A DNA stretch of 64,000 nt from the NCBI GenBank assembly GCA_045588365.1, contig JAZNEB010000024.1:48963-112962 (forward strand), read 5' to 3'. Made by a program: the position numbers and the translations under genes. This DNA comes from Clostridia bacterium (lineage in GTDB: Bacteria > Bacillota > Clostridia > CAKSNL01 > HGM11501). Below the pieces are notes generated by a model, which saw only the letters and a list, made by a program, of their open reading frames with translations, ran no database searches and was not told the DNA's origin. Each line of letters starts with the position of its first letter. Within the stretch, counting starts at the first letter, position 1. Shown here piece after piece: positions 4,163 to 51,498 of the stretch.

Positions 4163-5075
4163 CGCTATAAAGAAAAATCTTCTCCGTGAAGTGGCAGATT
4201 TGCACGACATTCCCGAGGGCGCTTACAATATAAGGTCCAACGGCTCCTCGGAATCAAGAAACACCACCGCAAATATCGATATTGTAAATAAAACCGATGT
4301 CAGCGGTATCGACATTTATATAAAACCGGGCACTAAAAAGGAAAGCGTGCATATCCCCGTAATTTTAAGTGAAAGCGGAATTAAAGAAACCGTCTATAAC
4401 GACTTTCATATAGGCGAAGATGCGGATGTTGTAATTATCGCAGGCTGCGGAATTCACAACTGCGGAAATCAGGACTCCTCCCACGACGGAATTCACCGCT
4501 TTTTCCTCTCTAAAAACGCCCATGTAAAATACGTTGAAAAGCACTACGGCGAGGGAGACGGTAACGGAAAACGCATATTCAATCCCACCACCGAGGTTAC
4601 CATGGAGGAAGGCTCTTCCCTTGAGATGGAAATGGTGCAGATTAAGGGCGTTGACTCCACAATAAGAAAGTCCACCGTTAAAATGGCATCAGGCTCCCGC
4701 CTTTTGGTAAGAGAGCGTTTAATGACTCACGGAGAGCAGACAGCCATAAGCGACTATGTGGTTGAATTAAACGGAGAGGGTGCTTCTGCCGATGTGGTTT
4801 CCCGTTCCGTGGCAAAGGACAACTCCTACCAGAAGTTTGACTCTGAAATTATCGGAAACGGTCCTTGCACAGGTCATACTGAGTGCGACGCCATTATTAT
4901 GGATAACGCCAGGGTTGTGGCTGTTCCGTCTCTTACTGCAAACAACATTGACGCTTCATTGATTCACGAGGCGGCAATCGGCAAAATTGCAGGAGAACAG
5001 CTTATAAAGCTTATGACCTTAGGTCTCACCGAAGCCGAAGCCGAAGAACAGATTGTAAACGGATTTTTGAAATAA
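4155..5075 (+). CDS. Fe-S cluster assembly protein, SufB/SufD family (short SufBD form)
   Basis: ORF 4149..5075; preferred ATG 4155 (GGAGG 8 nt upstream); SufBD-like beta-helix C-terminal region; overlaps sufC stop. Confidence 0.7.
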   Translation: MLDAIKKNLLREVADLHDIPEGAYNIRSNGSSESRNTTANIDIVNKTDVSGIDIYIKPGTKKESVHIPVILSESGIKETVYNDFHIGEDADVVIIAGCGIHNCGNQDSSHDGIHRFFLSKNAHVKYVEKHYGEGDGNGKRIFNPTTEVTMEEGSSLEMEMVQIKGVDSTIRKSTVKMASGSRLLVRERLMTHGEQTAISDYVVELNGEGASADVVSRSVAKDNSYQKFDSEIIGNGPCTGHTECDAIIMDNARVVAVPSLTANNIDASLIHEAAIGKIAGEQLIKLMTLGLTEAEAEEQIVNGFLK

Positions 5076-5107: not shown

Positions 5108-6402
5108 ATTTCTGCCGCTGCAAAGCCAAGAGGCGAGATTTTTATCTCGTCTTTTTCTGTTTTTGTTCCTCTTTCAATTATCATCTTTTTTATTCCGTCT
5201 GTCTTTATTGTTTTTTCTTCTTTCCCGAAGTTTATGGAAACTAAAATCCTTTTCTCTCCTTTAATTCTCTCAAAGGCAAGTAATTCCCCTTTATTTTCCT
5301 CTCTTAAAATAAGCTCTCCGTCATATAAAAGAGGATAGTTCATTCTCATTTTATTAAGTTCTTTCATTAAGGCAAGACGGCTCTGTCCCTCCACACTCAT
5401 GGCGTTGGACCAGTCTATTCCTATGTTCTTACCTGAGAATCTGTTAGAGAACATATTCTGTGTTCCCCTATCCAAAATTTCATTTCCGTTCCATATAAAG
5501 GGAACTCCGTCAACGGTGTATATAAGAAAATAGCATAAGTCTGTTATTTCGTGAGGATAAATCAAATCCATACGTCTTTCCTTGTGGTCGCTTGCCAGAT
5601 CGTGGCTTTCAAAAAGGTTAAGATGCTTATAACCAACTGAGGTAGTGAATTCCAGTGTCTTTTTAAAGGCCTCTGCCTTATCCTCCGAGTCCATAAAGGC
5701 GTGCCAGCCCATTCCTCCAAAAGCAGTACATCTGTAAGAAAGGTCGAAAACCCCGCTATTTACAAATTCGGGAGCTATTCCCTCATCAATCATAACAAGA
5801 TTTTCATTTATCTTCCTGCATCTTTTAATGCCCTCTTCCCAGAAATCCAGAGGTATGGCATCTCCCACATCGCACCTGAAGCCGTCAACCTTGTATTCTT
5901 TTAAGAAAAGCTCCATATTGGAGTAAAGATATTCCCTGACTTCATTATTTTCATAGTTTATTCTTGCGAAAGGCCAGTTGGCACCTACTAATGGCTTTCC
6001 GTCCTCATCCTGCTTCACCCAATCGGGATGCTCCTTTAAGAAAACCGCATTGACTCCGCAGTGAAGATATACAAGGTCGAACATTACCTTAAGTCCTTCC
6101 CTGTGTGCCTCGCATACAAAATCCAAAAGGTCTGAATTATCACCGTATTCCTCATCCACATTGAAATAATCCGCCATTTTATAGGGGTTTTTGGGGTTGT
6201 CTGCACCCGATGCAATTTGCCTGGGACTCCAGGTTGCTCTGTTTAAGTCAGCATCTGCCATCCATACGGGGCAAAGATAAATCCAGTTTACTCCAAGCTC
6301 CTTTATGTGATGGAGCATCTTTTTTGCAGCGTTAAGTGTTCCGTCAGGAGTTAATGCTCTTAGGGATATCTGATAAAGTATCCTATTTTCCACAAAAATC
6401 AC
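5104..6402 (-). CDS. Glycoside hydrolase family 13 (alpha-amylase family) enzyme, cytoplasmic
   Basis: 432 aa; GH13 conserved regions (DLVYLHCG, GFRCDVGD, EGI..., FESHD); no signal peptide. Confidence 0.8.
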   Translation of the reverse strand: MIFVENRILYQISLRALTPDGTLNAAKKMLHHIKELGVNWIYLCPVWMADADLNRATWSPRQIASGADNPKNPYKMADYFNVDEEYGDNSDLLDFVCEAHREGLKVMFDLVYLHCGVNAVFLKEHPDWVKQDEDGKPLVGANWPFARINYENNEVREYLYSNMELFLKEYKVDGFRCDVGDAIPLDFWEEGIKRCRKINENLVMIDEGIAPEFVNSGVFDLSYRCTAFGGMGWHAFMDSEDKAEAFKKTLEFTTSVGYKHLNLFESHDLASDHKERRMDLIYPHEITDLCYFLIYTVDGVPFIWNGNEILDRGTQNMFSNRFSGKNIGIDWSNAMSVEGQSRLALMKELNKMRMNYPLLYDGELILREENKGELLAFERIKGEKRILVSINFGKEEKTIKTDGIKKMIIERGTKTEKDEIKISPLGFAAAEI

Positions 6403-9657: not shown

Positions 9658-10497
9658 TCATCTGTATAGATAAAAGCCGTTTCCTATGATTTCGCTGCTC
9701 TCCGAAAAAATTGTAAATGCCTTTTCGTCAAGCGCTTTAACCCTTTCTTCAAAAAGAGGCATTTCCCTTTCCTTAAGGGCACAAATAAGCATATATTTGT
9801 CCTCAAAGGTATATCCGCCTTTAACATCTATGATTGTAACACCTCTGGGTGAATTTTCCGTTAAAAATTTTGCCATTTCCTCGCCCTTTTCCGTAACTAC
9901 AAAGGCAAGCTTTGAAACGTTGAGCTTTCTCATAAGCCAGTCAATGGCAAAGGTGGATATGAAAAGAGCAATTATGCCGTAAATGGTACGGTCAACCTCT
10001 CTGAAAGTAAGAAAAGCAAAGCCGATAATTACGGCATCCACAATCAAAATGAGCTTTCCTATCGGCATATGCGGAAGAAAATGCTGAAGTATTCTTCCCA
10101 AAATATCCGTTCCGCCGGTGGAGGCTCCCCCCACAAAGGTCAGGGAAATTCCAAATCCGTAAAGAGCCGCTCCCACTACGGATGCTAAAATTATATCATT
10201 GGTAACGGGGGGCAGATTTTCAAGCAGTCCCACCATAGCCGATACCAAAAGAGAGCCGATAATGGTTTTTATAATAAAGTTCTTTCCCAAAACCTTAAGT
10301 CCGAAAAGAAGTAAAACCACGTTGATTACCGCCAGTGAAATTCCGGCAGGAACAGAAAATACATGATAAAAAACCGTTGCGAGACCTGACGCTCCTCCTG
10401 ATACCACCTTATTGGGGACATAAAAAAGCGCTATTCCCACAGAAGTTAAAAAAGTGCCTACCAAAACAAGCATTAAAGATTTTAACTTTTCTTTCAA
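9658..10497 (-). CDS. YitT family membrane protein (DUF161 + DUF2179)
   Basis: 279 aa; polytopic N-terminal region with GGASG-type motif and soluble C-terminal DUF2179-like domain. Confidence 0.7.
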   Translation of the reverse strand: MKEKLKSLMLVLVGTFLTSVGIALFYVPNKVVSGGASGLATVFYHVFSVPAGISLAVINVVLLLFGLKVLGKNFIIKTIIGSLLVSAMVGLLENLPPVTNDIILASVVGAALYGFGISLTFVGGASTGGTDILGRILQHFLPHMPIGKLILIVDAVIIGFAFLTFREVDRTIYGIIALFISTFAIDWLMRKLNVSKLAFVVTEKGEEMAKFLTENSPRGVTIIDVKGGYTFEDKYMLICALKEREMPLFEERVKALDEKAFTIFSESSEIIGNGFYLYR

Positions 10498-13693: not shown

Positions 13694-14398
13694 TCACTTT
13701 TCCATGCTGCATTTAAGCTTTTCAACTGCCTTTTTTTCTATTCTTGACACATATGAACGGGATATTCCCAGCATCTTTGCAATTTTTCTTTGCGGAATGC
13801 ACTTTCCGTCTTTAAGACCATATCGCATTTCCACAATCATTCTTTCCCGTTCCTCCAAAGAATCTCTGATGCCGTCATAAAGCTTTTTAATTTTAATCTT
13901 TTTTTCGTACTGTTCCTCTATTTCTTCTTCCTCTGACGGAAGTATATCCATCAAAGTAACCTCGTTACCCTCCTTATCGCTGCCGATTGTCTCCGATAAG
14001 GACACCTCTGAAACCGAATGCTTTCTCCCCCTTAAAACCATTAAAATTTCATTGTGGATGCATTTTGCAACATAGGTGGAAAGCCTGGTCTTTTTCTCTT
14101 TCGTAAAGGTATTTATCCCTTTTATAAGTCCGATTGTTCCTATAGACAGTAAATCATCTGCTTCTTCGGGGCTTGTGGCATATTTTTTCACTATATGAGC
14201 TACCAGTCTTAAGTTATGCTCAATCAGCTTGTTTTTTGCCTCCTGGTCGTTTTCCTTTTCATATTTCTCCAAAAGATATTCTTCTTCCTTTTCAGTAAGG
14301 GGCTTCGGAAAGCTTCCGCTGTGGATATGCCCCAGCATGAAAATCTTCTGAATGAGAGTATAAAGGATATAAAGCAAATCAAAATTCCTCCCTAACAT
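13694..14398 (-). CDS. sigK: RNA polymerase sporulation sigma factor SigK (pro-sigma-K, uninterrupted)
   Basis: 234 aa; near-identical blocks to B. subtilis SigK (LIEHNLRLVAHIVKKY, ISRSYVSRIEKKA) and hydrophobic N-terminal pro-sequence ending ...SFPKPL. Confidence 0.85.
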   Translation of the reverse strand: MLGRNFDLLYILYTLIQKIFMLGHIHSGSFPKPLTEKEEEYLLEKYEKENDQEAKNKLIEHNLRLVAHIVKKYATSPEEADDLLSIGTIGLIKGINTFTKEKKTRLSTYVAKCIHNEILMVLRGRKHSVSEVSLSETIGSDKEGNEVTLMDILPSEEEEIEEQYEKKIKIKKLYDGIRDSLEERERMIVEMRYGLKDGKCIPQRKIAKMLGISRSYVSRIEKKAVEKLKCSMEK

Positions 14399-14437: not shown

Positions 14438-15334
14438 CTAATTTAATAAATTAGCATTGTAGGTAAGGGGTGAAGAAAGATTTATTCCCCCTGCTTTTTC
14501 GGTTTTTTCTCCGTTTATAAAAAACTGTACCGCACTTATTTCAGGCAGACTTGTAAGAGTATTGACCACCGAATAGATTGAAAGTGCGCTGTCGTTTTCC
14601 GTTATGGACAAAAGTTCCTCTGAGAAGTTTACATAGCACAATCTGTCCTTGGTTTCAACTGATAAAAGCTTTACCAAAGGAGGTAATAAAGTTTTTCTTC
14701 CCTTTACCTCCGAACCTTTTAAAAGTTGTTCTATGGCTGTTTTTTCTAATGTTTCATTGTCCTTTATGTCCACAATGCGTTTTTCCATTTTCAAGGTTTT
14801 TTTATCTTCTGATGCAAAATAGAGCTCCAATGCTACAGTCATATTCCGCCCGATTTCATCGGCGGTTATAACATTATTCATGGAAAGTGCTCCTATTTCC
14901 TCATCCCTTGAATTATATTTTATACCTCTTCCGTTTACTGAAATTTTAACGGATTTTATTCCCTCCAAAACGCAAAGGGTATTGACCACCGAATAGATTG
15001 AAAGCAGTCTCTGAGCATCATTTTTTGTTTTTTCAAAATCCTGAGAAAGATTTACAAGTGCCACATTATCTTCAATCCTTAAGCCTATAAGAGCCGTATT
15101 TTCGGGTATAACCCTTTTGTGCTCCGCTTTTTTAGGGCCTTTTAAGAGGGCTTCTGTAACAGCTCTTGCGGTTTTTTCCAAGGAATCGGTTTTTTCTATA
15201 ACCACTTTTTCAGAGGAAAAGCCTTTGCCGTTTTCATCCGAAAAATATAAAATGTGCTTTTCTCTGTCTCCGATGCATCCGGCAAGGCCAAGAAGGAGAC
15301 TTAAAATAACAAGTATTGAAACACTTTTTTTCAT
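14438..15334 (-). CDS. gerM: GerM-like lipoprotein with two GerMN domains
   Basis: 298 aa; lipobox LLGLAGC; two repeated GerMN-like segments (each ...SIYSVVNTL...). Confidence 0.65.
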   Translation of the reverse strand: MKKSVSILVILSLLLGLAGCIGDREKHILYFSDENGKGFSSEKVVIEKTDSLEKTARAVTEALLKGPKKAEHKRVIPENTALIGLRIEDNVALVNLSQDFEKTKNDAQRLLSIYSVVNTLCVLEGIKSVKISVNGRGIKYNSRDEEIGALSMNNVITADEIGRNMTVALELYFASEDKKTLKMEKRIVDIKDNETLEKTAIEQLLKGSEVKGRKTLLPPLVKLLSVETKDRLCYVNFSEELLSITENDSALSIYSVVNTLTSLPEISAVQFFINGEKTEKAGGINLSSPLTYNANLLN

Positions 15335-19206: not shown

Positions 19207-20235
19207 TTGAAAAGAGGATTGCTTTTTACATCCGTGTTTACTTTTGTTTTTTTCCTCTTGTTTGTGCATAAGATAACATTTAATCCCTCTGAAAGACTTA
19301 TAACATTTTCCGTTTCCTCTTCCCTTTGTAATTATTTTCCGAAAAGTACACCCTTAGTATCCTTTTCAAAGGAGTCCCTTATCTTGCTCGGGACGCTGCC
19401 CCCTGCCTCAGAAAACAAAAAAAGAGAGACTTCCTTAAAAGAAAGCCTCACATTACAAAAGGAAAATAACGAAAGTCTCCCTCCCGGGATAAAGGAGATA
19501 ACCATTGAAACGGGAGGGACAAGTCTTTTCGGTGTCCAGATAAACAACGAAACTGAGTATAATCTGGAAAATGCCTTTTCAGAAAAGAAATTCTCCCCTT
19601 CTTCTCCCGTTCTTATAGTCCACACCCACACCTCAGAAGCCTACCGTCCCACCTTAAAAAACTTCTATGAGCCTAAAGACAACCAAAGAAGCGAAGATGT
19701 AAATTTCAATGTGGCAAAGGTGGGGGCTCATCTTTATGAAAGTTTAAAATCCAAAGGAATTGATGTTACCCACGATGATACCATAAATGACTATCCGTCA
19801 TATAACGGGTCTTACAGCAAAACTCTCCGCCTAATAGAAGCTCACCTTGAAAAAAATCCTTCCATAAATATAGTTCTGGATCTGCACCGTGATGCCATGG
19901 AAAAATCCGACGGGACAAAATTAAGCACCGTTTGCGAAATAAACGGAGAAAAAGCCGCCCAGATAATGATTGTGGTAGGCACAGACCAAAGCGGTCTTAC
20001 CCACAGTAACTGGAGGAGCAATTTTTCTTTCGCCGTTTGCCTCCAGAGAGCTTTGGATAAAAAATTTCCCGGTCTTATGCGTCCCATCAATGTAAGATGC
20101 GAGCGCTTCAACGGACACGTTTCAGAAAATCAGCTTATCATAGAAATCGGCACAACGGGAAATACTTTGGAAGAAGCCTTATTGAGTGCCGAAGCCTTGT
20201 CTATAGGTCTTTCGGATATTATAAAGGGTAGCTGA
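19207..20235 (+). CDS. spoIIP: Stage II sporulation protein P (SpoIIP)
   Basis: 342 aa; TTG start with GGAGGGG RBS; N-terminal TM, SpoIIP family blocks (IHTHTSEAY, VLDLHRDA...). Confidence 0.8.
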   Translation: MKRGLLFTSVFTFVFFLLFVHKITFNPSERLITFSVSSSLCNYFPKSTPLVSFSKESLILLGTLPPASENKKRETSLKESLTLQKENNESLPPGIKEITIETGGTSLFGVQINNETEYNLENAFSEKKFSPSSPVLIVHTHTSEAYRPTLKNFYEPKDNQRSEDVNFNVAKVGAHLYESLKSKGIDVTHDDTINDYPSYNGSYSKTLRLIEAHLEKNPSINIVLDLHRDAMEKSDGTKLSTVCEINGEKAAQIMIVVGTDQSGLTHSNWRSNFSFAVCLQRALDKKFPGLMRPINVRCERFNGHVSENQLIIEIGTTGNTLEEALLSAEALSIGLSDIIKGS

Positions 20236-23412: not shown

Positions 23413-23448
23413 AAACGGAGCAGTGAATTTCACTGCTCCGTTTCGCTA
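23413..23448 (+). terminator. Terminator hairpin after argF (cggagcagtg-aattt-cactgctccg)
   Basis: 10-bp stem; weak T tract. Confidence 0.5.
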
Positions 23449-23924
23449 TTATAAAAACAATCTTTTTCCCATCTTATCACATTTGTATCTATGTATTCCC
23501 ATATCTTTTGATAGTCTTTTTCACCGCGAATTATGTGGTCGTGATATGACCTTTGCCATATAGAATTACCTATTTCTTTTGCGACCATTGTTTTGAATGA
23601 ACGAACTATGGTTTCTATGTTCTTTGTAGGGGACGATGCCCTCATCGTCCCGTTAAGAAATATAATCAAATGAATATGATTTGGCATTATTACATATTTA
23701 TCAACTGTTACATTTTCATATTTTATGTTTATATTATTGATATATCTGTCACATATTAAACCGATTTCAGACAAATTATTTTGCGGGACGATGTGGGCAT
23801 CGTCCCCTACGATTTTAGACAACAATTGCTTTCTGTCTTTGACGCATATTGTAATAAAATATGCTCCCGGTGTTGAATAATCGTACCCTTTCAATCTTGC
23901 TGGTTTTCGTTTTGGTAAAGTCAT
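23430..23924 (-). CDS. IS200/IS605-type Y1 (HUH) transposase-like protein, RAYT-like (COG1943)
   Basis: 164 aa; HUH motif PNHIHLIIF, catalytic Tyr region WQRSYHDHIIR; start overlaps XRE stop (ATGA). Confidence 0.75.
   Translation of the reverse strand: MTLPKRKPARLKGYDYSTPGAYFITICVKDRKQLLSKIVGDDAHIVPQNNLSEIGLICDRYINNINIKYENVTVDKYVIMPNHIHLIIFLNGTMRASSPTKNIETIVRSFKTMVAKEIGNSIWQRSYHDHIIRGEKDYQKIWEYIDTNVIRWEKDCFYNSETEQ
23626..23652 (+). repeat. REP-like GTAG-headed GC-rich palindrome inside transposase ORF (copy B)
   Basis: GTAG-GGGACGATG-CCCT-CATCGTCCC-G; encodes GTMRASSP in-frame on minus strand. Confidence 0.7.
23784..23810 (-). repeat. REP-like GTAG-headed GC-rich palindrome inside transposase ORF (copy A, inverted orientation)
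   Basis: minus strand GTAG-GGGACGATG-CCCA-CATCGTCCC-G; encodes GDDAHIVP in a different frame from copy B. Confidence 0.7.
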
Positions 23925-41941: not shown

Positions 41942-42529
41942 ATGAAACTTATTATGGCGACCAACAACCAGGGCAAGGTTTTGGAGCTTTCCTCCTATCT
42001 CGGAAATAATTTTGAGGTTATGACTCTGAAGGATGCAGGCTACGAAATCGAGGTTGAGGAAGACGGTAAAACCTTTCGTGAAAATGCAATAAAAAAGGCA
42101 CTCGAAACCTATAAAGTAACAAAAATCCCCTCTATCGGAGACGACTCGGGGCTCTGTGTTGATGCATTATCAGGTGCTCCCGGCATCTATTCCGCCCGTT
42201 GGGCTGGAGAGGGTGCAACTCAGGATATGCTTATAAATAAGCTCTGGTCAGAGCTTTCGGGAAAGGATTTAAAAACCGCAAAATTTGTTTCTGTGGTAGC
42301 ACTTGCCTTTTCCCAGGAGGATATCCTTATCGCTGAGGGTGAATGTAAGGGCATTATAATAGACGAAAAAAGAGGCAACGGTGGCTTTGGCTATGACCCT
42401 GTATTTTTTGTGGAGTCCTTGGGCAAAACCTTTTCAGAGCTTTCTTTAGAAGAAAAAAACAAGATAAGCCACAGAGCCAACGCCTTATTTAATCTTTGTG
42501 AAAAATTAAAGGAGCGGGGCATCATTTAA
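41942..42529 (+). CDS. rdgB: Non-canonical purine NTP pyrophosphatase (RdgB/Ham1)
   Basis: 196 aa; start ATG 41942 (AAGGA RBS); Ham1 motifs ATNNQGK, FGYDPVFF. Confidence 0.9.
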   Translation: MKLIMATNNQGKVLELSSYLGNNFEVMTLKDAGYEIEVEEDGKTFRENAIKKALETYKVTKIPSIGDDSGLCVDALSGAPGIYSARWAGEGATQDMLINKLWSELSGKDLKTAKFVSVVALAFSQEDILIAEGECKGIIIDEKRGNGGFGYDPVFFVESLGKTFSELSLEEKNKISHRANALFNLCEKLKERGII

Positions 42530-42562
42530 AAAGGAAAAAGCCGCTTAAAGCGGCTTTTTAAT
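42530..42562. terminator. Bidirectional terminator (agccgc-ttaaa-gcggct + T5)
   Basis: between rdgB (+) and Cys-rich peptide gene (-). Confidence 0.65.
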
Positions 42563-42565
42563 CCT

Positions 42566-42703
42566 TTAGCAGAGGCAGCCGCCTCCGCATGTGCAGTTAT
42601 CAGTTGTATTTCCGCAGGAGCCGCCGTTATTGCAGCAGCAAAGGATAAGTATGATAAGAATGATGATCCAGAGACATCCGCAGCCATTTGAGTTACCGAA
42701 CAT
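42566..42703 (-). CDS. Cys/Gly/Asn-rich tiny TM peptide (45 aa), YjcZ-like; not in ORF track
   Basis: ATG 42703 preceded by GGAG-7nt; MFGNSNGCGCLWIIILIILILCCCNNGGSCGNTTDNCTCGGGCLC; the 64-aa track ORF 42526..42720 is a different frame running through the terminator hairpin. Confidence 0.5.
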   Translation of the reverse strand: MFGNSNGCGCLWIIILIILILCCCNNGGSCGNTTDNCTCGGGCLC

Positions 42704-42784
42704 AATTTTACTCCTTTCAAAATGAAAACAATTGTTTAAGGAAGATTTTTCCCACCCTCCCTTAAAAGGGAGGGCATGGAGTTT

Positions 42785-42907
42785 TTAGCAGCCGCAGGAA
42801 TTATTGCATTCGCATCCGCATCCGTTATTCTGGAAATTTCCGTTCCCGAATAACACAATTAAGATTAAAATTATAATTATCCATGAGCCATTATTTCCGC
42901 AAAACAT
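42785..42907 (-). CDS. Paralogous Cys/Gly/Asn-rich tiny TM peptide (40 aa), YjcZ-like; not in ORF track
   Basis: ATG 42907 preceded by AAGGAGG-6nt; MFCGNNGSWIIIILILIVLFGNGNFQNNGCGCECNNSCGC. Confidence 0.5.
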   Translation of the reverse strand: MFCGNNGSWIIIILILIVLFGNGNFQNNGCGCECNNSCGC

Positions 42908-43027
42908 AAAAATCCTCCTTGGCTTATTTACTATTTATTTCAAGGGAGTTTTGCCTCCCACAACATATTATGTCAAATTCCATTTTCTGTTACATTTTTC
43001 AAGTAATAAAAAATCGAGGTGTTAATC

Positions 43028-44161
43028 ATGAAGTTTCTAATCCTATCCGTAACTGCAGGGCAAGGGCATCATCAGTGTGCCAAAGCCACTATGGAGGCCC
43101 TTTTGGAAAAAGGCCACAAGGCAGAAATTCTTGATGTTTACAAGGCAGTTTCCTCTCCTTTGGGAGAAACCATTGACAAGGGCTATCTTTTATCCACCAA
43201 ATACGCCCCTGACCTTTACGGAAAATTTTATCAGATTGCGGATGAAAAGGGCCTTGGTTCAGCCATTACAAAAGAAGCACAGAAGCTGGTTTATAAAAAG
43301 ATTGCGGAATTTATAAACGCCTTTGACCCTGACTGTATTATATGCACCCATGTATTCCCTGCCATAATGATTACCTCAGCCATAAAGCATAAAAAAATAA
43401 AGCCCCTTCCGTCCATAGGAATAATAACGGACTTTACCGTACATCCCTATTGGCAGAAGAGCAATCTTTCCGCCTATGTGGTTCCCAGTGAATTTTTGGG
43501 CTATCAATGCAAAATGAAAAACATTCCCGAAGAAAAAATCTGTCCTCTGGGAATTCCAATTTCAAAGAAATTTTCAGAGAAAAAGGATAAAAAAGAAGCA
43601 AGAGAAATCCTTTCAATTCCCGATAAAGACACTATTTTACTTATGACGGGAAGCATGGGCTTTGGCGATGTCCCTTCTCTTTTATCGGAAATTGATTCCA
43701 TAAGCGGAGACTTCCAGATTATCTGTGTCTGCGGAAACAACAAATCCAGTTACGAATTGATTTCATCTTCTTTATATTATCATGATGTATATACTTACGG
43801 TTTTGTGAACAACATAGACATAATGATGGACGCTTCCGACTTTATAATTACAAAACCCGGCGGACTTTCGGTTTCCGAAAGCCTGGCAAAAAATCTCCCC
43901 ATGATTCTGGTAAATCCCATTCCCGGGCAGGAAACCAGAAACCGTGAATTTTTATTGAATTCAGGTCTTGCTCTCGCAGTAAGCCGCACTCTTCCCATTG
44001 GAGAAGCCGTTTACAGGCTTCATAAAAACAAGGGTGTAAGGGAAGCTATGGAAAAGCTCACCTCCTTTTACGCCCATCCCGACTCTGCCGAACAAGTGGC
44101 AGACCTTGCCATAGAGCAGGCTAAAAATGCGATACAGCAGAAAGGAAACAGCCATGAATAA
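43028..44161 (+). CDS. MGDG-synthase/UgtP-like diacylglycerol glycosyltransferase (GT28)
   Basis: 377 aa from ATG 43028 (GAGGTG RBS); N-terminal MGDG_synth domain (ILSVTAGQGHHQ), C-terminal Glyco_tran_28_C. Confidence 0.8.
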   Translation: MKFLILSVTAGQGHHQCAKATMEALLEKGHKAEILDVYKAVSSPLGETIDKGYLLSTKYAPDLYGKFYQIADEKGLGSAITKEAQKLVYKKIAEFINAFDPDCIICTHVFPAIMITSAIKHKKIKPLPSIGIITDFTVHPYWQKSNLSAYVVPSEFLGYQCKMKNIPEEKICPLGIPISKKFSEKKDKKEAREILSIPDKDTILLMTGSMGFGDVPSLLSEIDSISGDFQIICVCGNNKSSYELISSSLYYHDVYTYGFVNNIDIMMDASDFIITKPGGLSVSESLAKNLPMILVNPIPGQETRNREFLLNSGLALAVSRTLPIGEAVYRLHKNKGVREAMEKLTSFYAHPDSAEQVADLAIEQAKNAIQQKGNSHE

Positions 44162-47583: not shown

Positions 47584-50500
47584 ATGCAGTCAGTAAAAAA
47601 ACTACTTTGTCTGGGACTGGTTTTTTCCATGCTTTTAACATCTTTCTGCTTTGTTTCGGCAGATGATACCGTTCCCGCAGAAGATACTGCAGTAAATGAT
47701 GCTACATCTTCCACAGAAATTACCGAAGCGGAGGCTCTCCCCACGGAATTTTCTGATATAGACTATGATTCGGTTATGGGAAAAGCCGTTGATTCGTTAA
47801 CAAACAAGGGAATAATCTCAGGCTATCAGGACGGCACCTTCAAGTCCGACCAGACCTTGACCCGTGCCGAGTTCGCAAAAATTATCGTATGCTTCAAGGA
47901 CGCCTCTTTATCTTCCTCGGAGCCTTCAGGCTTTCCTGATGTTGATGATGTGGGCGGAAGCGCTCACTGGGCACAGTCCTACATAAAAATAGCCAAGGAC
48001 ATGGGTATTATTTCAGGCTTCCCGGACGGTTCCTTCAGCCCTGATGCCCCCGTTACATATGAGCAGGCAACAAAAATGATTTTGTGCTCCTTAGGCTATA
48101 CAAATCTGGCTTATCCCCAGGGCTACATTCAGACAGCAGGTCAGAAAAGACTTTTTGTAAATTCTACCCATAAGGGTGCCACAAGCGACCCCATCACCAG
48201 AGGAACAACCGCTATTTTAGTAAATAACGCCTTTACCGTTCCTCAGAACAACAACATCTCAACAGAGACTCCCGGAACTACCGGCGGTGGCGGCGGTGGT
48301 TCCTTCGGCGACTCTTCTGCCGGCGGCGGTGGAGGTGGAGGCGGAGGCGGCGGAAACATCAAGCTTCCCGACGACCTTATCGAAAACCCCGTTGTAAAAA
48401 CAATGTACGGTGTTGTATGGGGCACTTTCTCCACAATGCTCGACACCACAAGAAGCTCCCTTTACGAAAATCAGATTTCTCTTCTTTGCGAAATCAAGGA
48501 CAAGGACACCAATGCAGTTTCCTACGAAAAGAAAACCTATTTCTTCCCCGAAAGCATGATTGGAAAATACGACAAGTATCTGGGTAAATACGTTAAAATA
48601 ACCCTATCCAGAGACGATGAGGGCGAAGAATATGTTTCTAAAATAGATTCCAACTTCCCCAAGAAGAATTATTCTGTTGACATTAAATTGGAGGATTTTA
48701 TACGCTTCTATGATGAAAATGCGGAAGATGATGATCCCTCCAATGACGAAACACAGAATTATATCCTTTCCTACTACAATTCCAAGGATAAAAAGGATAC
48801 TCTTAAATTCACCAACCCCGATGAGCTTTACGTTATTTATAACGGCAAGTCTATAAATACCGAAGAGGCTGAAGAATATTTATTCAATCCCGATTTCGTA
48901 GGGAACACCGCTATAGGCTCCTTTAAGTTCTTATCCTACGACGGAGATAAGAAAATAGACGTAATACTGGTTGATTCTTATAAGACCGCAGTGGTAAGCT
49001 CTAAAAACAAAAATACGGGCATTATAACCTTCCTTGACGGAAGCAAGCTTGATCTCACAAAAAATGATGCGGAATCCGACAGAGAAAGTGTCATTCTTAC
49101 CGACTCTACCACAGGTAAAAACATCACAATTTCAGACATTACCAAGTATGACGTAGTTGACTATAAGGAATCACTGGACGGTCTTTTATTATCTGCCTAT
49201 GTAACTCCCGTGAAGTCTGCCGCTTCAGGTTCGGTTTCCAAAATCAAGTTTGCATCCGAGGAGGTTTCTCCCGATGTTACAAGACCCATAATTGATGATG
49301 ACAGCTTTATTGAAATCAAAAATTCCACAACAAAGAAATCTTACAAATTCAACCCCTATTTCAAGGAAAGCTTCAATGCAAATCTGGCAGAGGATAAATA
49401 TATCCCCATGGTTGACGATACATTAAAGCTCTACCTTGATAAAGACGGAAAAATAGCTCACATGGAATATACGCTCACTACCGCAAATTCCAAATACGGT
49501 TATATAACCGATATGGCATTCAAGGTAGCTGAAAGAGACGATGAATATATCACAAATCCTGACGATGTAACTGAAGAAGATATCCCTGTTCTTAAAATGT
49601 ATCAGATATCTTCAAAGTCCTATACAAAAACTCCTGTTCCCGTTGCATCAAAGGTTATAGTTGACGGAAATATATATCGTAACAATCCCGTTGCGGTTTA
49701 CGAAAGACTTGTCCTGGCAGCTACAGTTGCAAACAGAGGTAAGCTTGATGCTAAGAACCAGAATATGACCTTTGCTTCCTTTGTCCGTTACGAAGTTACG
49801 GGCAGTGAAATAACCGTAATTGATACAATCTTGGATAAGGAAGGACACCTTTCCACAGAAACCGACGATCGCTACAATCTTTTGGTAAGAAGCGAAAAGT
49901 ACGTTTACGACGAGAGAGATTCTGCTCCCGGTAAGCTTTATGATTACGGAGGACAGCACATCTTCTGCACCTCTCCCTCCGCAGGCTTCCACACAGAAGG
50001 AACCTCCAAGCGTTTCAGAGTTAATTCCTCTACAAATATACTCTTTGTTCCCGGCAACAGATTGAGCGGAGCAGAATATTCGGTAGCTAAATATTCCTCT
50101 TCCAATTTTATTGCCTATATGAAATATTATGTAGAGGCATATAACCTTGATGCAAGTAACTATGCGGAATTTGTTCTTCAGTATATGACAGCAGGAAACG
50201 AGCAGATAACAGCTTATTCACAGACATCAACTCTCGGTGTTATAACTGAAATTTTAGACCCCGATATGGATGAAGTAGATGAATTTACTGTTAAGTACAG
50301 AACAAATTCAAGCACTTCTGTTTTAAGCATACTGATAAAAGACGATTATCCCGCTTACGCTAAGAGAGATAATCTTAAAGCGGGCGATGTAATCCTCTTC
50401 TCCAAATCAAGAGATAAGACATCAATTTACGATTACTACCACTCACTTGATGTAAATAATCTTCCCGTAAAGAGAATAGATGATACTGATCTTTTCTACT

Positions 50501-51498
50501 GTAAGAGCAATATAGATGACAGAAGAATTAAAGGCTTTGCAACATATCCCACCGACACAACGCAGGATTATACCGATGATGCAAGGTACAGAACAATTTA
50601 CGGAACTGCAGTTGAGTATGTTTCTTCAGACTCCACTCTTATAGTAAATCCTGCTCTTTCTACAGACTATCTTGCCCCCGATCACAATTTCGACGAAAGC
50701 TTCCTTGTTTCAAGCTCCACAAGACTCCTTGTTTATGACGAAGATGCAGAAACAATTACAGCCTATACCTCCTCTACCGCTACTACCTTAAAGGAATTCC
50801 TGTCAGGAGACGGAGGCGATGAGCAGGGTCTTTTAACAGCGGCTGACAACGGCGATTCTTTCGAGGGTTCGGACCATGTATTTGTTTACACCTCACTTAA
50901 TAATACTGCAAAGATAATCTATGTAATCCGTTCTTCTTCACAGAGAAATCCCGCTCCCTACAGCGACGATGTTGACGTATTGAACGGAGTGAGACAATCA
51001 GCAAAGAATTCTCTGGATTCTCATGTAAATCTCTCTTTATATGAAGAAATAGCAACCGCCATAAACGAAGTTATAGCTCAGGGTAAAGACGCAATTGATG
51101 AAGCAGAATCTTCAGAGGCTATCGAAGAGGCAACTATACTTGCCAAGGGCAAGATGGACGCTATCACCAATCTTTACTCCTATGTGGCTCCTGACGAATA
51201 CGAGGAGATTGCCGCAGATTTAAGGACTTTGGTTTCAGAGGGTATAGAAGCCATTAAAAATGCAGAAACAGTTTTCGATGCGGAAACTATCTGCTCTGAC
51301 TATAAAAACTCAATAGATGAGGCAATTGCAGCTTTAGAAGAACCTTCCGAAGAACTTGAAGAAGAGCCTTCCCAAGAACCTGAAGAAGAACCTTCCCAAG
51401 AACCTGAAGAAGAGCCTTCCCAAGAACCTGACGAAGAACTCGAGCCCGAACCCGAGACTGAGCCCGAGACTGAGCCTTCCGAGGAATTAACTGAATAA
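47584..51498 (+). CDS. Large S-layer-homology (SLH) domain surface protein with poly-Gly linker and acidic C-terminal repeats
   Basis: 1304 aa; signal peptide; SLH repeats near N-terminus (…ISGYQDGTFKSDQTLTRAEFAKII…, …ISGFPDGSFSPDAPVTYEQATKMIL…); G-run ~48280-48360; EEPSQEPE x3 24-bp tandem repeats ~51355-51430. Confidence 0.8.
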   Translation: MQSVKKLLCLGLVFSMLLTSFCFVSADDTVPAEDTAVNDATSSTEITEAEALPTEFSDIDYDSVMGKAVDSLTNKGIISGYQDGTFKSDQTLTRAEFAKIIVCFKDASLSSSEPSGFPDVDDVGGSAHWAQSYIKIAKDMGIISGFPDGSFSPDAPVTYEQATKMILCSLGYTNLAYPQGYIQTAGQKRLFVNSTHKGATSDPITRGTTAILVNNAFTVPQNNNISTETPGTTGGGGGGSFGDSSAGGGGGGGGGGGNIKLPDDLIENPVVKTMYGVVWGTFSTMLDTTRSSLYENQISLLCEIKDKDTNAVSYEKKTYFFPESMIGKYDKYLGKYVKITLSRDDEGEEYVSKIDSNFPKKNYSVDIKLEDFIRFYDENAEDDDPSNDETQNYILSYYNSKDKKDTLKFTNPDELYVIYNGKSINTEEAEEYLFNPDFVGNTAIGSFKFLSYDGDKKIDVILVDSYKTAVVSSKNKNTGIITFLDGSKLDLTKNDAESDRESVILTDSTTGKNITISDITKYDVVDYKESLDGLLLSAYVTPVKSAASGSVSKIKFASEEVSPDVTRPIIDDDSFIEIKNSTTKKSYKFNPYFKESFNANLAEDKYIPMVDDTLKLYLDKDGKIAHMEYTLTTANSKYGYITDMAFKVAERDDEYITNPDDVTEEDIPVLKMYQISSKSYTKTPVPVASKVIVDGNIYRNNPVAVYERLVLAATVANRGKLDAKNQNMTFASFVRYEVTGSEITVIDTILDKEGHLSTETDDRYNLLVRSEKYVYDERDSAPGKLYDYGGQHIFCTSPSAGFHTEGTSKRFRVNSSTNILFVPGNRLSGAEYSVAKYSSSNFIAYMKYYVEAYNLDASNYAEFVLQYMTAGNEQITAYSQTSTLGVITEILDPDMDEVDEFTVKYRTNSSTSVLSILIKDDYPAYAKRDNLKAGDVILFSKSRDKTSIYDYYHSLDVNNLPVKRIDDTDLFYCKSNIDDRRIKGFATYPTDTTQDYTDDARYRTIYGTAVEYVSSDSTLIVNPALSTDYLAPDHNFDESFLVSSSTRLLVYDEDAETITAYTSSTATTLKEFLSGDGGDEQGLLTAADNGDSFEGSDHVFVYTSLNNTAKIIYVIRSSSQRNPAPYSDDVDVLNGVRQSAKNSLDSHVNLSLYEEIATAINEVIAQGKDAIDEAESSEAIEEATILAKGKMDAITNLYSYVAPDEYEEIAADLRTLVSEGIEAIKNAETVFDAETICSDYKNSIDEAIAALEEPSEELEEEPSQEPEEEPSQEPEEEPSQEPDEELEPEPETEPETEPSEELTE

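Follow-up and report, generated by a model that had tools for sequence, protein, structure and literature searches.

Tandem genes for cysteine-rich micropeptides with a putative sigma-K-type promoter form a conserved, undescribed family in Clostridia

In a 64,000-nt stretch of DNA from a Clostridia bacterium (contig JAZNEB010000024.1; hereafter the window), two tandem open reading frames (ORFs) on the minus strand, namely gene 1 and gene 2, encode cysteine-rich peptides of 40 and 45 residues, respectively (Table 1). We find that both ORFs are real genes forming one bicistronic unit, which is kept as a pair and is sometimes fused, and that they are members of a large family that is unnamed, previously undescribed, and frequently unannotated. 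The unit is preceded by a conserved promoter of apparent sigma-K type, and we consider it probable that it is a late-sporulation operon of the mother cell, with products that serve as structural or protective components of the spore envelope.

A preliminary description of the window, made from its letters alone, had pointed to the two ORFs and to their strong Shine-Dalgarno sites, and both are present as described when the minus strand is read over 42300..43200 and its ORFs are listed. The 6 cysteines counted there in the 40-aa peptide are right, whereas the 45-aa peptide contains 10, not the 11 given. Not part of that description are the operon that the two genes form, which is conserved, and the large family to which they belong.

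Conservation and coding status of the two genes

A single-sequence protein search with one of the window peptides gave one weak match, P0001, leading to a contig (L001) with two similar tandem small ORFs, and the same search with the other peptide gave no match. A degenerate DNA pattern, written by hand to cover W-I-I-[IV]-x-x-I-L-I-x-C-C and run on a collection of species-representative genomes, matched at least 119 stretches; the locus-based counts that follow (120 loci, 116 upstream regions) rest on these pattern matches and not on the whole family. Homologs in related genomes, whose absence the preliminary description would have held against the peptides, were found, with the same tandem, same-strand pair in 92 of the 120 loci, an intergenic gap of 31-189 nt (median 61), and, for 87 of the 92 first genes, an AGGAGG-class site 4-11 nt ahead of the start codon. 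Among the 80 titles listed, all are Bacillota metagenome-assembled genomes (MAGs) or isolates, with Clostridia-type labels save for one Erysipelotrichaceae-labelled MAG; the listed hosts are Clostridia, Oscillospiraceae, Monoglobus, Ructibacterium, Ruminococcus, and Lachnospiraceae, the cultured Ructibacterium gallinarum DSM 107454 among them. Within these titles, the family is confined to Bacillota and almost entirely to Clostridia.

The frame in which we read the peptides is translated and under purifying selection, as the substitution and codon-position patterns of the core show. Over the ungapped core (Trp-3 to Trp+12, pooled over 190 unique coding sequences), the proportions of synonymous (pS) and nonsynonymous (pN) differences in the read frame were 0.905 and 0.215, respectively, a ratio of 0.24, as against 0.91 and 1.82 when the DNA is read in the two remaining frames, and the entropies of the three codon positions in the same 190 sequences were 0.87/0.28/1.41. 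Moreover, the amino-acid composition of the peptides stays constant over loci of 24-63% GC.

A closer relative of the window (locus L124), which we fetched through the neighboring glycosyltransferase gene (75% identical), carries both genes, their order and position unchanged, with MFGSNNCGCLWIIILILILCCGCGNGGACGTTGNNNDCNCGCIC as the orthologue of the gene 2 product. The Shine-Dalgarno sequence of gene 2 is kept there along with its flanking AUUUUGAAAGGAG, and, within the conserved block, the window and L124 differ only in silent Ile codon changes. A 64-aa ORF in another frame (42526..42720), dismissed as spurious in the preliminary description, does exist, and we agree with that verdict, because a stop codon interrupts its frame in L124.

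Table 1. Positions of the two peptide genes, their signals, and other features within the window.
Feature	Position	Strand	Remarks
Gene 1	42785..42907	-	40-aa peptide MFCGNNGSWIIIILILIVLFGNGNFQNNGCGCECNNSCGC, 6 Cys; ORF listing and strand reading; L124 orthologue at same position and in same order
Gene 2	42566..42703	-	45-aa peptide MFGNSNGCGCLWIIILIILILCCCNNGGSCGNTTDNCTCGGGCLC, 10 Cys
Shine-Dalgarno of gene 1	42914..42920	-	AAGGAGG; sequence reading
Shine-Dalgarno of gene 2	42711..42717	-	AAAGGAG
-35 element, putative sigma-K-type promoter	42988..42993	-	GTAACA; family-wide motif
-10 element	42964..42972	-	CATAATATG; separated by 16 nt from the AC of the -35
5' untranslated region stem-loop	42944..42959	-	GGGAG-N6-CUCCC; near the predicted transcript start; -9.4 kcal/mol, z = -2.7
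Intercistronic stem-loop	42754..42775	-	CCCUCCC/GGGAGGG, no U-run after it; -21.2 kcal/mol, z = -4.3
Intrinsic terminator	42525..42559	-	11-bp stem, then U-run; -16.7 kcal/mol, z = -4.7
sigK	13694..14398	-	28 kb from the pair; presumed trans-acting sigma factor; NF004471, 297 bits (cutoff 252)
GerM-like 'Germane' protein gene	14438..15334	-	Directly beside sigK
spoIIP	19207..20235	+	
IS200/Y1-transposase-like ORF	23430..23924	-	PF01797, E = 1.2e-6; among housekeeping genes
Gene for 1304-aa protein	47584..51498	+	N-terminal S-layer homology (SLH) domains, no other Pfam match

A conserved promoter of putative sigma-K type

We compared the 130 nt ahead of the first gene in 116 loci. When aligned, these regions share one conserved two-block element, tGTAAC(A/C), 16 or 17 nt, (C/A)(A/G)TAnnnTA, whose -10 part mostly ends 30-70 nt ahead of the ATG. 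A loose form of this motif (AC-N16/17-[ACG][AG]TAnnnTA) occurs in 97 of the 116 loci, versus a mean of 6.7 and a maximum of 14 in shuffled sequences, and its GT[AC]AC form in 77, versus 0.15 in shuffles, with a spacer of 16 nt (65 loci) or 17 nt (12 loci); the constancy of the downstream TA in CATAnnnTA carries no weight here, because the search pattern required it. Of the 75 copies of the strict motif found over 913 kb of loci, 66 are located immediately upstream of family genes. As an internal control, we looked for the strict motif ahead of known spore genes in these 913 kb and in the window and found no informative case, almost all matches being those of the family. In L124, the promoter consists of GTAACC followed, 16 nt after the AC, by a canonical CATATTATA.

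Sigma-K promoters have AC as their -35 element and sigma-E promoters ATA, and the -10 element is common to both (PMC3789822). We took the mapped C. difficile promoters of Saujet et al. (Tables S6 and S7; 23 sigma-K and 47 sigma-E) as a reference: GTAAC is present in 8 of the 23 sigma-K promoters (cotA, cotE, CD1067/cdeC, and others) and in none of the 47 sigma-E promoters, and the regular expression for the family motif matches 10 of the 23 and, again, none of the 47. Among the promoters of sigma-F and of sigma-G in Table S6, inspected by eye and not by a scripted count, we saw no GTAAC. Further, a -35 matrix gave the family promoters 6.9 bits under the sigma-K model versus -0.4 under the sigma-E model, favoring sigma-K in 94 of 97. 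The family promoter thus appears to be of the sigma-K type.

The window encodes the corresponding sigma factor, whose identification as SigK by NF004471 (Table 1) is accompanied by 293.9 bits for TIGR02846 (cutoff 298.65) and by 216 and 201 bits for SigE models, far under their cutoffs. Because the window encodes SigK, SpoIIP, and a GerM-like protein, the host has sporulation machinery and is a genomically competent spore former. The link to sporulation that the preliminary description had proposed gains from these genes, from the conserved promoter, and from the membership of B. subtilis yjcZ in the sigma-K regulon (PMC517825). The window sigK gene itself seems uninterrupted, without a skin-like insertion.

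In type A loci (defined below; e.g., L049, L019, and L105), the 12-20 nt after the -10 element contain another block, TATA(t/c)(a/c)CATAC(g/a)AAAGAAC, that is also strongly conserved. This block exceeds what a -10 element needs and may represent the start region of the transcript, another, overlapping -10 element of the mother cell (CATACA-like), or the site of a regulator.

Transcript anatomy

As predicted from the window, the operon would comprise, in order, the sigma-K-type promoter, a 5' stem-loop, a Shine-Dalgarno site and gene 1, an intercistronic stem-loop, a second Shine-Dalgarno site and gene 2, and a terminator. The three stem-loops (5' end, intergenic, and terminator) are common to the window and L124, in the same places but with different sequences. 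At the 5' end, the stem in L124 is GAGAGC/GCUCUC, with a compensatory G-C to A-U change, and this stem-loop may act as an mRNA stabilizer. Between the genes, L124 has a hairpin of another sequence at the same place (-25.1 kcal/mol, z = -4.5), and an intergenic structure of -8 kcal/mol or stronger is found in 31 of 87 pairs. The 60 nt that lie 3' of gene 2 fold, family-wide, at a mean of -17.7 kcal/mol versus -6.5 for shuffles, with 78 of 87 at -10 or stronger. Such features, namely a strong promoter used late, a stem-loop at the 5' end, ribosome-binding sites of consensus type, and a tight terminator, are what one would expect of an abundantly made product.

Family structure and extent

The pairs are ordered. 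In type A (58 pairs; A1+A2), which occurs mostly in low-GC genomes (median 28%), a 'EILWFIILFLLLFCGCGN' peptide is followed by a 'MPENRGCGCGFGFGDDCCWIIILIILICCCCGG' peptide; in type B (33 pairs; B+B; median GC 46%), a 'MFGNGCGxxxCLWIIILIILISCCCGNN...CCCD' peptide is followed by a 'MGCFGNGFGGDNCLWIIILIILI.CCCGNN..GCGCC' peptide. Only one pair is mixed, with an A1 peptide and then a B peptide, and the window pair is a divergent type B. In addition, at least 13 fused single-chain proteins (P0027, P0042, P0050, P0068, P0070, P0133, P0144, P0146, P0187, P0197, P0208, P0228, and P0229) carry the module twice, with a Gly/Asn/Cys linker of ~20 aa between the repeats. The two distinct, conserved paralogue types per pair and the fused two-repeat versions suggest a joint action of the peptides.

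Among 5.8 billion protein clusters (90% identity), a profile search returned 495 proteins at E<=1, none with a Pfam domain and all named 'hypothetical protein' save one, and an exhaustive HMMER search of 1.84 billion representatives returned 252 clusters (50% identity) at E<=1e-3. The exception in name is the fused P0050, which NCBI calls 'chorion class high-cysteine HCB protein 13' after a silk-moth eggshell protein; only the Cys/Gly-rich composition is common to the two, and the name is a composition-driven annotation artefact. One family member, P0066, is found in 558 blocks of the assembly collection, located among mutL and groESL. Since one gene of a pair, or both, often escapes the gene callers, and since the exact sequences of both window peptides are absent from the 15-billion-protein collection, these family counts are underestimates. 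At L121-L123 (about 9750..10000), the gene calls show no gene in the gap upstream of the called peptide, and those of the window likewise lack at least one member of its pair. Full-text searches of the literature library on the core motifs, on TIGR01732, and on related terms yielded no paper in which the family is described, and a review of small proteins in Gram-positive bacteria, in the passages retrieved with sigK, cysteine, and spore-coat terms, names only SpoVM, CmpA, and the small acid-soluble proteins (SASPs) as sporulation peptides.

Cys-poor, Gly/Tyr-rich relatives also exist (e.g., P0219, P0127, and P0099). Such relatives, e.g., MAERGFLGGVFDNDTILWFIILFLLLFWCCGGYGYDYGVKG, are encoded at L133 (3928..4080) and L135 (4001..4126 and about 4176..4289), and in L135 the tandem partner MSDRYGFGFGNEFIWIIILIIIFCCFCGGFGGYGVYKD stands beside the Cys-poor relative. 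Their promoters have the family form, with GTAACA and AATAATATG in L133 and GTCACA and AATAGTATG in L135, the -10 element, of the form AATAnTATG in both, lying 16 nt after the AC. These relatives are possible intermediates towards a YjcZ-like composition.

Four longer proteins (P0232, P0195, P0207, and P0222) start with a related motif, GNNNGAFGEGNGAWWIIILFLFIFCGWGNGNGWNNG. Two of them, P0232 (E = 1.7e-38) and P0195, match phrog_16490, a phage family of unknown function, in which a Trp-led hydrophobic module similar to that of the family serves as the N-terminus of a phage protein.

Properties of the peptides

The 184 distinct family peptides are 22-49 aa long (median 40) and consist of 23% Cys, 20% Gly, 13% Asn, and 13% Ile, with medians of 9 Cys and 1 Lys or Arg per peptide. 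Their core is short, made of Ile and Leu and led by an invariant Trp, with a strictly hydrophobic run of 10 residues in the median, or 14 when adjoining Cys are included. The flanks are nearly uncharged, rich in Cys, Gly, and Asn, and ~12 residues long on each side, with a median of 3 Cys ahead of the core and 6 behind it. Lys and Arg are absent altogether from 79 of 183 peptides; CC and CxC motifs occur in 181-182 of 183, and CC, CxC, and CGC in nearly all members. We also considered a lipobox of the form [LVI][ASTVI][GAS]C at 'LIS|C', as in a lipoprotein signal peptide, and rejected it as unlikely, because the residue ahead of the Cys cluster varies (S/F/C/I/L/A/W) and the N-region is uncharged.

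Relation to YjcZ and to other spore proteins

The preliminary description had likened the peptides to the tiny transmembrane sporulation peptides of the YjcZ family and had proposed a hidden Markov model search as a check. The hydrophobic-core architecture is genuine and the sporulation link now has evidence behind it, but membership of TIGR01732 (YjcZ) is not supported, since this model was matched by neither the window peptides (E<=10), nor 67 family representatives (E<=1), nor 5 further variants, as against 54.8 bits for a YjcZ-like positive control (cutoff 21.35). An hhalign comparison of the family profile A4 with that control, which stood in for the TIGR01732 seed alignment, gave a probability of 8.5% over only 9 hydrophobic columns, and searches of Pfam, NCBIfam (67 representatives), and PHROGs (8 members) gave nothing beyond spurious hydrophobic matches. 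Having failed both the TIGR01732 cutoff and the profile tests, the family is like YjcZ in form and likely regulation, but not a demonstrable member of it.

The likeness consists in (i) a length of some tens of residues, with Gly-rich tails on either side of a single short hydrophobic core (in the family, a median of 40 aa with a core of 10-14), and in (ii) an occurrence in endospore formers, with several paralogues, as reported for YjcZ in B. cereus (PMC8313275). In contrast to YjcZ, the family has (i) a core that opens with an invariant Trp, (ii) tails rich in Cys and Asn, with a median of 9 Cys, (iii) genes arranged as an ordered pair or a fusion, and (iv) hosts among the Clostridia instead of the Bacilli. 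In kind, the family would belong with the tiny late-sporulation membrane peptides, and it is a better-populated relative in form for the equally uncharacterized YjcZ peptides of Bacilli.

Cysteine-rich proteins made late under sigma-K control include CotY, CotZ, and ExsY of Bacillus as well as CdeC and CdeM of C. difficile. The latter two are exosporium proteins for which disulfide cross-linking has been proposed (PMC9542656), and among the precedents for Cys richness that depends on sigma-K they are functionally the best; the -35 element of the cdeC (CD1067) promoter, GTAACA, is identical to that of the window. However, CdeC and CdeM are soluble proteins of 19-45 kDa without a hydrophobic core, whereas the family peptides are of 4-5 kDa with a membrane-type core, and we found no homology to Cys-rich coat or exosporium proteins (CdeC, CdeM, and CotY/Z), as no Pfam or NCBIfam family matches the 67 members.

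Very small mother-cell peptides that act at the forespore surface are represented in B. subtilis by SpoVM and CmpA (PMC10730256), and the family is like them in size and, if its promoter is read correctly, in mother-cell origin. SpoVM differs in being an amphipathic helix under sigma-E that recruits SpoIVA, and it has neither Cys-rich tails, nor pairing, nor sequence similarity to the family. Cys clusters beside or within a membrane anchor are also known from eukaryotic CYSTM modules and from chlamydial OmcA, the latter being made late and disulfide-linked in a dormant, resistant cell form. These are analogies only, with no sequence relation (no Pfam hit) and with different organisms and architectures.

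Proposed role and alternative explanations

Because a sigma-K-type promoter precedes the pair and the window encodes SigK, SpoIIP, and a GerM-like protein, we take the bicistronic operon to be transcribed, most likely, in the mother cell at a late stage of sporulation, by an RNA polymerase carrying the SigK that is encoded 28 kb away. Each product of ~40 aa would use its hydrophobic core as an anchor in a mother-cell-derived membrane or in a hydrophobic layer around the forespore, and its thiol-rich tails may become disulfide cross-linked, or may hold metal, once the spore meets oxidizing conditions. Since the paralogues stay together as a pair and, in some cases, are joined in one two-helix protein, they probably act as a hetero-oligomer.

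Several observations weigh against this late-sporulation envelope operon. With regard to the promoter, (i) the assignment to sigma-K is drawn from sequence alone, (ii) the -10 element of the window ends in TG, not TA, and (iii) a subset of type B has CGTA in the -10 element and, with TGTAAC, also resembles promoters of extracytoplasmic function (ECF) sigma factors. With regard to the products, the hydrophobic core falls short of the length of a standard transmembrane helix, and we therefore word its role cautiously as a membrane-embedded or hydrophobic-layer anchor; an AlphaFold2 model of one fused member has two helices (16-31 and 42-55) but a predicted local distance difference test (pLDDT) score of 52, a low confidence for which we give the model little weight. 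The halves of the fused proteins do not map cleanly onto the gene 1 and gene 2 subtypes, so we make no claim on fusion order. Moreover, no conserved neighbor gene indicates a pathway in the contexts examined, and many hosts of the family are MAGs, for which spore formation would be a presumption.

We weighed five alternative explanations, none of which fits as well as the late-sporulation envelope operon, although two of them partly overlap with it. In one of these two, the peptides are divergent true YjcZ (TIGR01732) members whose tails have drifted to Cys and Asn. Architecture and size are the same, yjcZ is sigma-K controlled and has several paralogues per genome in B. cereus, and the Cys-poor, Gly/Tyr-rich relatives have the family promoter and a composition that looks intermediate; yet none of the ~74 sequences tested matches a model that scores the control at 54.8 bits, the hhalign match (8.5%) is limited to 9 columns, and the YjcZ-like control has neither the invariant Trp nor the Cys clusters. 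With so few residues per peptide, homology to YjcZ can be neither proved nor excluded, and we hold such membership to be unlikely. The other overlapping idea keeps the same regulation but makes the peptides a metal store or redox buffer of the spore instead of a structural cross-linker, either metallothionein-like or as sacrificial thiols that shield strict anaerobes against oxygen. The Cys content of 23%, the CC, CxC, and CGC motifs in nearly all members, and the gut-anaerobe nature of the hosts speak for it, but neither a metallothionein nor any other metal-binding family is matched and no metal-handling neighbor is conserved, and a soluble buffer would need neither a conserved hydrophobic core nor pairing, which leaves this idea similarly improbable.

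That the peptides damage membranes, as a type I toxin or as a holin-like factor for mother-cell lysis at the end of sporulation, would suit their late mother-cell timing and the way in which these small hydrophobic peptides stand alone among housekeeping genes. The charged C-terminal tail of holins and type I toxins is absent, however, with 79 of 183 peptides lacking Lys and Arg, and 8 family members gave no significant PHROG match, holins included; a tightly repressed toxin would not be expected to combine very strong Shine-Dalgarno sites with no significant antisense promoter (1 site versus 2.5 expected), and lysis gives no role to the extreme Cys content. We judge lysis quite improbable. 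Alternatively, an ECF-type envelope-stress sigma factor might read the promoter (TGTAAC ... CGTA), making the products stress-induced vegetative membrane peptides. The SigW and SigX promoters of B. subtilis have the form AAC-N16-CGT, similar to the CGTA-type promoters of the family, and CGTA starts the -10 element, 16 nt after GTAAC, in 12 of the 77 strict matches; but most loci (65 of the 77) have AATA or CATA and not CGT, as do the window (CATA) and L124, and the motif matches the mapped sigma-K promoters of cotA, cotE, and cdeC, so that we rate an ECF promoter very unlikely. Finally, the peptides might be precursors of ribosomally made, modified peptides (Cys-rich sactipeptides, ranthipeptides of the six-cysteines-in-forty-five (SCIFF) type, or a two-peptide bacteriocin), being Clostridial, ~45 aa long, multi-Cys, and sometimes tandem. 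However, no SCIFF or other precursor model of NCBIfam is matched, no radical S-adenosylmethionine (radical-SAM) maturase, protease, or exporter adjoins the pair in the contexts examined, and the conserved part is the hydrophobic core and not a leader, all of which makes a modified peptide exceedingly unlikely.

A wider claim than the late-sporulation envelope operon itself is that this unnamed, two-component family of ultra-Cys-rich micropeptides builds, within the spore envelope of many uncultured gut Clostridia, a layer that is anchored in the membrane and linked by disulfides or metal, a claim that we offer tentatively, as possible but on balance doubtful. Were it true, then, given the conserved sigma-K-type promoter and the prevalence of the family, the layer would be a new structural element of anaerobe spores, and the operon would serve in metagenomes and metatranscriptomes as a compact genomic and transcriptomic marker of late sporulation in lineages not yet grown. 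Spores drive the transmission and persistence of gut Clostridia, and the composition of their envelope is known for few cultured species. As spore components, the peptides would constitute a new class in spore architecture, that of membrane-anchored, Cys-rich micropeptides, and their escape from tryptic proteomics would be explained, because they have almost no Lys or Arg. Curated libraries do not cover the family and annotation often misses it; its sigma-K-type promoter is among the cleanest conserved ones in this analysis.

Genomic context

Across the contexts examined, the neighbors of the pair are genes for Ham1, a monogalactosyldiacylglycerol (MGDG)-synthase-like glycosyltransferase, mutL, groESL, and the like. 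Among the loci examined, the rdgB-pair-glycosyltransferase arrangement of the window is common to L012, L033, and L124 only, and because the neighbors differ elsewhere, the context gives no functional clue. An Rfam scan of the window at gathering thresholds found three tRNAs only. The gene for the SLH-domain protein (Table 1) lies downstream of the glycosyltransferase gene, two M16 peptidase genes, and lgt, in a block that is syntenic in L012 and L033.

In L001, from a Ructibacterium MAG, a tRNA-like sequence (6220..6295) lies immediately 3' of the terminator of the pair, and a gene for an L,D-transpeptidase of the YkuD family lies divergently upstream of the pair; B. subtilis ykuD is in the sigma-K regulon list (PMC517825).

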